The position numbers and the translations under genes were made by a program. DNA of 5,077 bases from a virus. Taxonomy: Duplodnaviria > Heunggongvirae > Uroviricota > Caudoviricetes. Location: IMG/VR virus record IMGVR_UViG_2713896779_000031. One strand, given 5' to 3'. This document shows, in pieces, positions 1,778-4,548 of the stretch; the stretch's first letter is position 1, and the number at the start of each line of letters is the position of its first letter. The notes under the pieces were generated by a model. The model was not told the DNA's origin, did not search any database, and saw only the letters and a list, made by a program, of their open reading frames with translations.

Positions 1778-1794
1778 TCCAAGCATGAAACTAT

Positions 1795-1818
1795 TGGCCA
1801 CAATTTGTGGCCATTTTA
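1795..1818 (+). terminator. perfect 9-bp inverted repeat (TGGCCACAA-T-TTGTGGCCA) followed by TTTT; possible int terminator or operator
   Basis: Arms at 1795-1803 and 1805-1813 are exact reverse complements, followed by TTTT at 1814-1817. Lies between the int stop (1777) and the preferred start of the next gene (1836). Could equally be a dimeric protein-binding site. Confidence 0.35.
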
Positions 1819-1835
1819 CGGAGCAAGATAGAAAC

Positions 1836-3569
1836 ATGGCAAATCAAATTACCAAACTAAAAAATATAAATGTTGTGAAGTTTCGCGGACTGAAAAATAT
1901 AAACATCGAGTTTGGTTCTCGCCTAACTGTTATTTGTGGTAAAAATGGCACATCTAAATCCACAATTCTTGGCATTATCGCCCAAATATTTAGCTTTACA
2001 AAGGACTTTACCAAAAACCCTGAGACTGATTTAACACAATATAAAACATTAACAAATGGCAGCTTCAAGTCAGCTTTCAGCGAACATTTTAGGCTTTCAG
2101 AACAATTTGATGTTCCTGGTTCAATGGACGTCAAAATTAGTGTCTATGATGGTGCATCGAACAAACATCTTGAAAAACTAACATTAGGTTTATACAGCTA
2201 CAGTGACAGAGATAAATCTAGGCCTGTAGTCAGGGGAAATGATTCAATACCGGAAAAAAACCAAAGTAGAAACGTTACTCATCCTGTTATTTTTTTAAGC
2301 TTAGCACGACTTCTTCCTATTACATTAAGGACTGATTACTCAACACGGGATGTTCAGTACATCAATGAAAATTCTGATGAAATCAGAATGATGAGTAACC
2401 AACTCTTACTAAAAAACAATGGAAGCTCAGTAACAGCAACAAAAGGTACTATCGATTCAATGGTTGTCCATGGTGACAATTATGATCACCAATCAGTATC
2501 TGTTGGTGAAGATAATGTTGGACAATTAATCCAGGCAATTTTTTCATTTAAAAGACTGAAGGAAACTTATTCTGATTATCATGGCGGAATATTGTTAATT
2601 GATGAAGCCGATGCAGGTCTTTTCCCTGCGGCACAGTTAGAGCTAATTAATATTCTAACTAAAGCAGCAAAACAATACGATCTGCAAATAATCATGACCT
2701 CGCACTCCCCATTAATAATAGAGGATATCTATAATCGTTCAAAACAAGATAGTGATAGCTTTAAAACAATATATCTTACAGACACATATGGAGATATTAA
2801 AACAAAGAATAATCTTTCATGGACAGATATCCACGCTGATTTACATGTTGAAACTGTAAAAATTAATGATGACATTTGTCTTCCAAAGGCAAATGTATAT
2901 TTTGAAGACAAAGAAGGTTTCGACTTTTTCAAACAATTGATAACAGATCGAAAAATAAATAAAATATTAAATCCATTAGGGAATATAAATATTAGCTGCT
3001 CTGCCATGCTTGACTTAATGGCAAGAAAAATACCAGAATTTACAGCTAAAAGCTTGATCGTCTTAGACGGTGATGTTGTTCACGACAACAGTGCTAATGC
3101 AAAAAAAGCCAAAAAAGAAAAAAACTTATGTTTGCTTCCAAGCACCTTACCTCCAGACCAAATGATTTTTGAGTTTTTATATAATTTACCACCTGATGAT
3201 GCATATTGGGAAAATAAAAATAAATTTACAAAAGCTGTTTTTATGAAAACAGCTAAAGACATAATTGCAACGCTAAAGATTGGTAACGCTCCGATTGATT
3301 TAAAAATCCTTATAGATAATTATAAAAAAGTTAACAAAAACCATGGAGGGAGAGTTAGAAAACTGTTTAAAGATTTTGCACATACGACTCAATTTCAGGC
3401 CCAAGTCAAAGGAAGAGTTAAAGATAACCCATATCGATATTGGGTCGAGAAAAATCCTGTTCAATCGGATAGCTTCAAGAATGAACTAATAAAGAGTCTT
3501 AAAGTTATTATGATAAGTGGACATGGTGTCGATTCTGCTACCATCTCATCATATCTGTCAGATAACTAA
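1836..3569 (+). CDS. ABC/SMC-type ATPase with acidic C-terminal region; putative OLD-family-like ATP-dependent nuclease
   Basis: Walker A GKNGTSKST (1938-1964), Walker B/D-loop ILLIDEADAGL (from 2589) and H-loop-like MTSHSPLII define an ABC-type ATPase head. The C-terminal ~260 aa carry FEDKEG (2905-2919) and LDGD (3066-3074), reminiscent of TOPRIM Glu and DxD motifs; that assignment is inference. Start is ambiguous: the track starts at ATG 1785, but I prefer ATG 1836 (GGAG at 1820-1823; keeps the 1795-1813 palindrome outside the CDS). Confidence 0.85.
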   Translation: MANQITKLKNINVVKFRGLKNINIEFGSRLTVICGKNGTSKSTILGIIAQIFSFTKDFTKNPETDLTQYKTLTNGSFKSAFSEHFRLSEQFDVPGSMDVKISVYDGASNKHLEKLTLGLYSYSDRDKSRPVVRGNDSIPEKNQSRNVTHPVIFLSLARLLPITLRTDYSTRDVQYINENSDEIRMMSNQLLLKNNGSSVTATKGTIDSMVVHGDNYDHQSVSVGEDNVGQLIQAIFSFKRLKETYSDYHGGILLIDEADAGLFPAAQLELINILTKAAKQYDLQIIMTSHSPLIIEDIYNRSKQDSDSFKTIYLTDTYGDIKTKNNLSWTDIHADLHVETVKINDDICLPKANVYFEDKEGFDFFKQLITDRKINKILNPLGNINISCSAMLDLMARKIPEFTAKSLIVLDGDVVHDNSANAKKAKKEKNLCLLPSTLPPDQMIFEFLYNLPPDDAYWENKNKFTKAVFMKTAKDIIATLKIGNAPIDLKILIDNYKKVNKNHGGRVRKLFKDFAHTTQFQAQVKGRVKDNPYRYWVEKNPVQSDSFKNELIKSLKVIMISGHGVDSATISSYLSDN

Positions 3570-3580
3570 TTGATTAAAAA

Positions 3581-3614
3581 GGGTTTTATGTGATGGCCAT
3601 AAAGCCCTTTTTTT
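3581..3614 (+). terminator. rho-independent terminator between the ATPase and methyltransferase genes
   Basis: Stem GGGTTTTATG (3581-3590) pairs with CATAAAGCCC (3598-3607) with one G-U position, loop of 7 nt, followed by TTTTTTT (3608-3614). An A-run precedes the stem, so it could act bidirectionally. Confidence 0.7.
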
Positions 3615-3648
3615 GATATACTTTAGATCTGACATTTAGAGGTATCAT

Positions 3649-4548
3649 ATGCGTTTTAACACCCCACTTCGCTATCCTGGCGGTAAAGGCAAGCTTGCAA
3701 ATTTCATGCTTCGGATTATTGAAGAAAATAATCTTTCGCCTATACATTATGCCGAACCATATGCTGGGGGTGCTGGTTTAGCATTGAAACTGTTACATCT
3801 AAATGCAGCTGAAAAAATCATCCTTAATGATATTAATATTTCTGTTTATGCTTTTTGGCACAGTGTATTAAATCATGCAGATCAATTATGTTCTTTAATT
3901 GAAAGAACAGAAGTTACAATGGATGAATGGTTTAGGCAGAAAGATATAATTAATAATCCTAAAGACCATGATCTTTTAACAATTGGTTTCTCAACCTTTT
4001 TTCTCAATAGAACAAATCGTTCTGGAATATTAAAAGGTGGAGTAATTGGCGGTAAAAATCAAGAAGGGAAATGGAAGCTTGACGCTCGCTATAATAAGAG
4101 TGATTTGATTTCTCGAATCCATAAAATATCAGAAAATCGTCACAGAATAGATTTATATAACATGGATGCAATTGATTTCATTAAAAAAATAGTTATTCAA
4201 TTGCCACAAAACTCATTAACATATTTGGATCCACCTTATTACATAAAAGGTAAAGGTTTATATATCAACCATTATGATCATGATGATCATGTTAGGGTTG
4301 CAAAAGTCGTACAGAATAATATTAAAACACCTTGGATTGTTTCTTACGATAACACTCCTGAGATCCAAGCTATGTATAAGACATCATCATTAGTATATGG
4401 AATAAACTACAGTGCTCAAGATCGGTACAAAGGATCTGAGGTAATGTTCTTCAGTGAACGATTGAAAATCTTTAAAACAGATGATCCAACTAAGGTAAAA
4501 GCGCCTGTATTTAAAAGAGGATGTGTTGACGACCACATCCAGACATAA
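3649..4548 (+). CDS. Dam-family (D12 class) N6-adenine DNA methyltransferase
   Basis: 299 aa. Motifs align with E. coli Dam as I recall it: LRYPGGKGKL (Dam KWAGGKYPLL), SAM-binding EPYAGGAG (3754-3777; Dam EPFVGAGSV), FFLNRTNRSGILKGG (Dam LYLNRYGYNGLCR), catalytic DPPY (4228-4239), WIVSYDNT (Dam VLISNHDT). RBS AGAGG 6 nt before ATG 3649. Target sequence cannot be told from sequence. Confidence 0.93.
   Translation: MRFNTPLRYPGGKGKLANFMLRIIEENNLSPIHYAEPYAGGAGLALKLLHLNAAEKIILNDINISVYAFWHSVLNHADQLCSLIERTEVTMDEWFRQKDIINNPKDHDLLTIGFSTFFLNRTNRSGILKGGVIGGKNQEGKWKLDARYNKSDLISRIHKISENRHRIDLYNMDAIDFIKKIVIQLPQNSLTYLDPPYYIKGKGLYINHYDHDDHVRVAKVVQNNIKTPWIVSYDNTPEIQAMYKTSSLVYGINYSAQDRYKGSEVMFFSERLKIFKTDDPTKVKAPVFKRGCVDDHIQT

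Follow-up and report, generated by a model that had tools for sequence, protein, structure and literature searches.

A linked ATPase-methyltransferase pair, probably an anti-phage system, in an exchangeable low-GC slot between the integrase gene and the ssrA attachment core of a lambdoid prophage family

Introduction

PD-lambda-5 is a validated two-gene system, described as 'ParB/HEPN, methyltransferase', which protects against nearly all tested phages, T-even phages included, and which its discoverers called a 'compacted prophage version of an RM+Abi system', a combination of restriction-modification (RM) and abortive infection (Abi) (PMC9519451). Its cloning required a delta-mrr host (PMC9519451), which indicates in vivo activity for a methylase of this family. 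The nucleases of the OLD family have been divided by gene context into class 1, which stands alone, class 2, accompanied by a UvrD-like helicase, and class 3, found in retrons, with PARIS representing an arrangement split into AriA and AriB (PMC10568477). Prophages are known for their defense hotspots, the P2 old/tin locus being one example, and for accessory or lysogenic-conversion genes beside int and attP (PMC9519451; PMC9122126). The locus analyzed here has something in common with each of these. It consists of two adjacent genes, for an ABC-type ATPase and a Dam-family DNA methyltransferase (methylase), that form a block of low guanine-plus-cytosine (GC) content between the integrase gene (int) and the attachment-site (att) core in a 5,077-nt stretch of viral DNA (Caudoviricetes; IMG/VR record IMGVR_UViG_2713896779_000031), referred to below as the window.

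The original prediction for this DNA had noted the drop in GC content over the two cargo genes and had read it as a horizontally acquired insertion of an origin different from that of the phage backbone. A comparison of the window with complete E. coli genomes, with the Citrobacter phage phiNP and with a broad set of loci encoding relatives of the ATPase shows the block to be one of several interchangeable cassettes and leads to a different view of what its composition means.

Results

Different cassettes alternate between int and the att core

The int gene of the window (611..1777, plus strand) encodes a lambda-type, ssrA-specific tyrosine integrase (Pfam Arm-DNA-bind_2, 5e-23; Phage_integrase, 3e-16; Phage_int_SAM_5). 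Of 5426 complete E. coli genomes, 411 contain this gene at 92-100% nucleotide identity, CFT073, 042 and ST131 strains among them. The methylase gene at ≥98% identity was found in only ~86 E. coli genomes, and at least 80% of the window is covered in 84. In prophages carrying other cargo, the blastn homology ends on the left at window position 1744, 1746, 1753 or 1759, leaving 16-31 nt up to the stop codon of int (whose matches in other genomes stop at nucleotides 1113-1152 of 1167), which places the left junction of the exchangeable slot within the last int codons (1744..1759). On the right, the homology restarts at about 4609-4624, just before the att core, in a spacer (4549..4628) that is 58% conserved relative to phiNP and represents either an attP arm or the right junction.

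At least eight distinct gene contents occupy the interval between int and the ssrA core, this cargo and seven others. Two of the alternatives are recognizable: AbiLi with AbiLii in O103:H2 (PADLOC, 4e-101 and 5e-29), and DarT with a NADAR antitoxin (DarTG) in AR_0369 (by RefSeq product names). The other five comprise a three-gene set with a STAS-like protein in MS7163/M37H (locus L021, 5165-7035), two hypothetical genes on the minus strand in CFT073 (L004, 6187-7375), a two-gene set in SA186 (L022, 5472-6542), a single gene in S5 (L006, 6215-6994) and a single gene in Res13 that differs from that of S5 (L023, 5216-6034). A PADLOC scan of eight proteins from these five cassettes returned no match, and we regard them as candidates for unknown defense genes. 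All the alternative cassettes are AT-rich, with a GC content of 0.31-0.37 as compared to 0.40-0.47 in the neighboring xis-int region. Overall, the low-GC block is an exchangeable cassette in a prophage hotspot of cargo or defense gene recombination, in which xis-int and the 25-bp core are conserved. In the searchable open-access literature, we found no account that treats this slot of the phiNP / E. coli 042 family, from the int 3' end to the ssrA core, as a defense hotspot.

The compositional break itself was measured by computing GC content in 200-nt windows across the entire 5,077 nt. The profile stays at 0.41-0.49 over positions 1-1800, drops to 0.275-0.39 over 1701-4600 and returns to 0.475 at 4601-4800. 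By segment, the values are 0.453 (1-1784), 0.334 (1785-4548) and 0.410 (4549-5077), the contrast between the first two having p = 5.5e-16 in a 2x2 chi-square test, and an unconstrained two-change-point likelihood fit, 38 nats better than the no-break model, places the breaks at 1725 and 4620. The same difference is seen between genes, both in total GC (int 0.446, ATPase 0.335, methylase 0.333) and at third codon positions (GC3; 0.401, 0.266 and 0.243, respectively). Thus, the sharp drop relative to xis-int, originally estimated from hand counts of ~48% versus ~32%, is borne out by the profile, the segment counts and GC3, and the hand counts proved close to the computed 0.453 and 0.334. The proposed edges hold as well, with the drop beginning at the int stop codon (1775-1777) and the GC content rising again ~80 nt before the att core (4629-4653). 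The accompanying claim of Lys/Asn/Ile-rich cargo survived in part: Asn and Ile together make up 16-17% of the cargo proteins versus 9.5% of Int, but the share of Lys is 8-10% in Int, the ATPase and the methylase alike.

A phage that is uniformly AT-rich outside the window would have counted against the original reading, but the backbone is richer in GC. Across the E. coli 042 prophage, no other 2.76-kb window has a GC content as low as that of the cargo (0.332 versus a median of 0.465), and the remainder stands at 0.475; in phiNP, the cargo (0.341) is the minimum window of a genome whose remainder has 0.544. The comparison with phages sharing the integrase, suggested in the original prediction, also gave a clear answer, since other genes fill the same slot in relatives with a 92-99% identical int.

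Integration at ssrA

The right boundary of the slot is a 25-bp att core, GGTTCAACTCCCGCCAGCTCCACCA (4629..4653, plus strand), identical to the 3' end of the ssrA gene for transfer-messenger RNA (tmRNA). The int orthologue of phiNP integrates at a 25-bp ssrA core for which attP and attB were determined experimentally (PMC6456863), and the core of the window is identical to these experimental sites (PMC6456863). In the corresponding region of E. coli 042, the core occurs exactly twice, at the 3' end of an intact ssrA and directly after the methylase gene, 27.7 kb apart. The element is accordingly a lambdoid prophage that has integrated in ssrA and carries xis-int-cargo at the attR end. Together with the excisionase gene (see below), the arm-binding tyrosine integrase and a core equal to the ssrA 3' end make up a lambda-type ssrA integration module.

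The same prophage of E. coli 042 contains a second low-GC island (0.31-0.36; L186, 31841-33840), flanked by the Q antiterminator gene on one side and the lysis genes on the other. The two hypothetical genes of this island lie on the opposite strand, and it is probably another cargo slot of that prophage.

The two cargo genes

The upstream gene (1836..3569, plus strand) encodes an ABC-type ATPase of 577 aa whose C-terminal domain is OLD/Toprim-like. The reading frame is open from an ATG at 1785, which would yield a 594-aa product, but this start was rejected in favor of 1836, because most homologues have 577 aa and the 17 extra codons hold a conserved palindrome. The N-terminal part of the protein matches Pfam AAA_15 and AAA_21, with PtuA, AriA and GajA as the top PADLOC matches, and it contains the Walker A, Walker B and signature motifs of the N-terminal ABC ATPase by which the OLD family is recognized; Walker A (GKNGTSKS), Walker B (LLIDE) and the H-loop residues are invariant in homologues. 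The C-terminal half (258 residues) gave no match against Pfam, PADLOC or PDB sequences, and none among the Toprim/OLD sequence models. A structure model of this domain showed a weak similarity to Toprim/OLD folds, with AriB as the closest structural match, and residues E357-D358 and D411-x-D413 are invariant in 38 homologues, down to 50% identity. Based on the ABC ATPase motifs and this invariant E-D...DxD pattern, we read the protein as an OLD-like ATPase-Toprim nuclease, where the Toprim assignment of the modeled C-terminal domain is supported but not proven. In PHROG, the protein is listed as function unknown.

Between the stop codon of int and position 1836, in the ATPase leader, lies the perfect 9+9 palindrome TGGCCACAA-t-TTGTGGCCA (1795..1813). 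It is kept in phiNP, and a Klebsiella island (L020) has a version ahead of its ATPase gene in which changes in the two arms compensate each other (TGACCAC...ATGGTCA). This element could be a hairpin, a terminator of int, a retroregulator or an operator.

The downstream gene (3649..4548, plus strand) encodes a 299-aa N6-adenine DNA methyltransferase of the Dam family (D12 class). It matches Pfam MethyltransfD12 (1.8e-19, residues 9-249), and among PADLOC models MTase_II (3.4e-107) and, over residues 1-282 of 299, PD-Lambda-5_B (PDLC04018, E = 5.8e-124). The catalytic and S-adenosylmethionine-binding motifs, as read from the protein sequence, are intact (EPYAGGAG, and DPPY at residues 194-197). 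A P2-like prophage hotspot carries a ParB-like + methylase pair whose methylase shares 51% identity with the enzyme. A methylome study of ST131 lists, for JJ1886, a putative methylase, M.Eco1886ORF14565P, which may or may not be the same gene.

The spacer between the two genes combines a terminator-like hairpin followed by a T-run (3576-3614) with an extended -10 promoter-like TGaTATACT (3614-3622; the entire feature, 3576..3622, on the plus strand). A TGnTATAAT is present at the equivalent spacer position in phiNP and in loci L008, L017 and L020, and the intergenic spacer is the segment best conserved relative to phiNP (93.7%). The hairpin and the conserved extended -10 site suggest that the methylase gene may be transcribed independently, from its own predicted promoter. 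In the GenBank record of phiNP (OR565852.1; L002, 9236-10117), a 293-aa methylase open reading frame (ORF) following the 'AAA family ATPase' gene is unannotated.

Linkage and distribution of the pair

The survey of ATPase relatives covered 160 loci, drawn from viral contigs and from contigs representing one genome per species; 153 of them are informative as to the downstream gene and seven are cut by a contig end. A D12 methylase is present in 143 of the 160 loci and lies immediately downstream on the same strand in 134 of the 153 informative ones. The order of ATPase then methylase, with a gap of 70-140 nt, is common to several mobile contexts, including an integrative and conjugative element, an e14-like prophage (between icd and intE), Pseudomonas prophages (beside the cI repressor gene), Yersinia prophages (between Q and the holin gene) and the Klebsiella island L020. 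Hosts of the pair belong to Gamma- and Betaproteobacteria, Geobacter, Bacteroidota, Actinomycetota (Mycobacterium) and Listeria. On these comparative grounds, the ATPase-methylase pair is best regarded as a functional unit.

Just upstream of the ATPase gene in the Klebsiella island, ~100 nt (within L020, 4870-5000) resemble the 3' end of an ssrA-type integrase gene. Given this int-like remnant, the Klebsiella copy may derive from an int-linked cassette.

Two groups of loci depart from the simple pair. In six loci (including those of Enterovibrio, Edaphovirga and Kushneria), the ATPase, a ParB/HEPN-like protein and a D12 methylase are encoded side by side (L015, 5001-9209; L027; L034/L161; L057; L102), and the ParB/HEPN-like protein shows 25-68% identity to PD-lambda-5_A. 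These three-gene loci tie the ATPase variant and PD-lambda-5 into one family built around the methylase. They point to a modular system, with one methylase served by two effectors that are either alternative or additive. The other group is an ATPase subfamily of ~41% identity that occurs without a methylase (ten loci, L176-L185; e.g. L179, 4158-6659) and is encoded, in viral contigs, directly downstream of a cI-like repressor gene (helix-turn-helix and Peptidase_S24 domains). In lambda, the corresponding position after the repressor gene is that of rexAB.

Age and meaning of the low GC content

One explanation of a compositional break of this kind would be a recent import, with newly inserted foreign DNA still bearing the composition of a low-GC donor. 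The 12-point gap in GC, the 14-16-point gap in GC3, the sharp edges and the lack of the cargo in most of the integrase-bearing genomes are all in line with it. The comparison with phiNP, a functional temperate phage of Citrobacter rodentium, points the other way: its cargo occupies the same place, and its ATPase and methylase genes match those of the window at 83.4% and 87.5% identity, respectively, as compared to 84.0% for int. Since the cargo has diverged from that of phiNP as much as int has, the association is old, predating that split, and the module has traveled with int without its GC content converging on that of the backbone. Nor does the composition look like a donor signature. In the 129 of the 160 loci that have sufficient flanking DNA, GC content of the pair is below that of the flanks in 127, with a mean gap of 10.7 points across hosts ranging from 35% to 65% GC, and it correlates with the GC content of the flanks (r = 0.83); in a Pseudomonas example, the pair has 0.475 as compared to ~0.6 in the flanks. 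Thus, the pair ameliorates toward its host, albeit to a set point ~10 points lower. Moreover, every alternative cassette of the slot is likewise AT-rich. A recent import is accordingly an unlikely explanation, and the co-divergence with phiNP, the 127 of 129 loci and the AT-rich alternative cassettes lead us to view AT-richness as a maintained property of such accessory and defense genes.

It follows that one half of the originally proposed foreign insertion can be retained, namely that the cargo is separable from the backbone, whereas the other half, read as a recent arrival from a low-GC donor, is not supported by the low GC content. The GC drop flags accessory cargo but neither dates its transfer nor names its source. 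More generally, compositional breaks should not be taken as evidence of recent transfer, as low GC content can be a stable trait of a cassette.

Flanking features of the window

Upstream of int lie two further conserved genes. A small phage ORF of 71 aa (169..384, plus strand; GC content 0.468) upstream of xis matches PHROG phrog_1226 (E = 6e-34, function unknown) and is annotated as the hypothetical protein WP_001331173.1 in all related prophages. The excisionase gene xis (432..650, plus strand; RefSeq start at 444) matches phrog_2917 'excisionase' over its full length (E = 1.6e-45), overlaps the start of int and is annotated as xis in phiNP. A scan of the window for tRNA genes found none, and Rfam gave a partial, sub-threshold tmRNA match at 4551-4653. 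A 98-aa ORF on the minus strand (4610-4906) was dismissed as spurious, having no family match and overlapping both the att core and a terminator.

Homology to other genomes ends at 4653, the last position of the core, and only IMGVR_UViG_2657245131_000017, the source contig to which the window itself corresponds, continues past it. The DNA beyond (4654..5077) is outside the cassette and corresponds to the end of another lambdoid ssrA-integrating element, with 93.6% identity to the ends of Escherichia phages PhiR12_1/2/4/5 beside their dinI genes. It contains a terminator-like hairpin, CCCAGATCTCACGGTCTGGG, with T-runs on both strands (4780-4799), ~130 nt past the att core; were it brought next to int and the cargo solely by excision of the phage, this hairpin would recall sib of lambda. 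A dinI-like ORF starting at 4924 has an in-frame TGA (5008-5010) with the frame open afterwards, and this segment (4924-5077) may be a pseudogene.

Discussion

A putative function of the ATPase-methylase module

In our view, the ssrA slot of the phiNP family here probably holds a linked ATPase-methylase module that acts as an anti-phage system expressed from the prophage. We infer that its role is to guard the lysogen: the prophage would express the module and thereby shield its host cell from other phages. As to the mechanism, an RM-like mode of action appears the most likely, although we favor it only tentatively, at close to an even chance. The methylase would mark the DNA of the host and of the prophage, and the ATP-driven Toprim nuclease would attack unmarked incoming DNA. 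Such a mechanism would account for how tightly and in what order the two genes are linked, and for the predicted promoter of the methylase gene. In its broadest form, with the pair as a widespread unnamed defense system whose OLD-like ATPase/Toprim nuclease discriminates self by N6-methyladenine placed by a dedicated Dam-family enzyme, the proposal is speculative but a real possibility.

Several considerations weigh against an RM-like defense role. The role is deduced from sequence and family comparison, and the promoter and terminator calls on which the separate transcription of the methylase gene is predicated are consensus matches only. The protection that PD-lambda-5 also provides against T-even phages would be unusual for a simple restriction system (PMC9519451), and several OLD/Toprim relatives are reported to cleave tRNA instead of DNA (PMC12445682; PMC12409363). 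Finally, the methylase-less subfamily implies that the ATPase can exist alone, which weakens a strict RM logic.

Part of these observations would be better accommodated by a guard-type Abi mechanism, in which the ATPase-Toprim protein is a latent toxin, a tRNA or DNA nuclease, that is restrained by the methylase or monitors it, and is freed by an anti-restriction protein of the infecting phage. PARIS (AriA/AriB) and PrrC with EcoprrI follow the same logic, and the resemblance to PARIS extends to the proteins, AriB being the closest structural match of the C-terminal domain and AriA being among the best matches of the ATPase domain. The 'RM+Abi' interpretation of PD-lambda-5 by its discoverers, along with its T-even protection (PMC9519451), the three-gene loci, in which one methylase is common to two effector-like genes, and the ATPase relatives without a methylase can all be cited in its favor. 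On the other hand, a lone methylase that has no restriction partner has no obvious role as a guarded protein, and the tight ordered linkage with a separate methylase promoter is what self-protection by modification would predict. For these reasons we rate a guard-type mechanism as somewhat doubtful, below the RM-like one. It is also conceivable that the module serves the phage rather than the lysogen. The Dam methylase of P1 and many other phage methylases protect phage DNA from host restriction, and the methylase of the window could be an orphan enzyme of this kind, next to an unrelated, stand-alone OLD-like gene. Related prophages contain several other orphan methylases (four are annotated in phiNP), and class 1 OLD genes act alone (PMC10568477). 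Chance adjacency, however, provides no explanation for the same gene order in 134 of 153 informative loci from many phyla and at least six mobile-element contexts, which makes this alternative very improbable.

If the RM-like reading is correct, the pair would add a context class to those described for OLD nucleases and represent a novel form of ATP-dependent restriction, and the methylase would be a shared core that can be combined with a ParB/HEPN effector (as in PD-lambda-5), with an ATPase-Toprim effector or with both. The module is conserved from Enterobacterales to Bacteroidota, Mycobacterium and Listeria and is absent from the current defense catalogues. The slot is now precisely mapped in a common E. 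coli prophage family, and its five unmatched cassettes provide a ready list of candidates for defense functions.

Comparison with known systems

The closest parallel to the pair is PD-lambda-5, with which it shares the methylase family, the two-gene, prophage-borne and AT-rich organization, and the placing of an effector gene ahead of that for the methylase. What differs is the partner. The A component of PD-lambda-5 is a ParB/HEPN protein of ~500 aa, whereas its place in the window is taken by an ABC ATPase of 577 aa bearing a Toprim-like domain; the PD-Lambda-5_A model of PADLOC matched neither the full ATPase nor its halves. An assignment of the cargo to PD-lambda-5 was therefore rejected, despite the methylase match, because its A component is a different protein. 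PADLOC (2023 models) contains no system model for the ATPase-methylase pair, and no paper on the pair was found in the open-access literature by Pfam names or by RefSeq accession.

The OLD family includes P2 Old, TsOLD, GajA of Gabija, the retron Eco8 effector and PARIS, and none of its described classes pairs with a DNA methylase. The gene context of the ATPase of the window, with its D12 methylase partner in 134 of 153 loci, thus fits none of them. IbfA, an ATPase-Toprim protein of an IncI1 plasmid (PMC12111858), was considered as the same system and set aside, being a single gene without a methylase. The likeness to type II RM systems consists in an intact Dam-class methylase beside a putative nuclease and in a promoter-like site for the methylase gene; unlike in those systems, the putative nuclease here is an ATP-dependent ABC/Toprim protein and not a PD-(D/E)xK, HNH or GIY-YIG enzyme.

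A GC drop with accessory genes beside int and attP is already familiar in temperate phages. In P22/SfV-type phages, gtrABC is located between int and attP. The value of the locus thus lies in the unclassified ATPase-methylase module and the five uncharacterized slot-mates more than in the GC drop. As a location, the slot resembles the prophage hotspots of P2 (old/tin) and P4 in having conserved flanks and variable AT-rich accessory genes beside int/attP, and, as in a hotspot, known defense systems (AbiL and DarTG) alternate in it with unknown genes.

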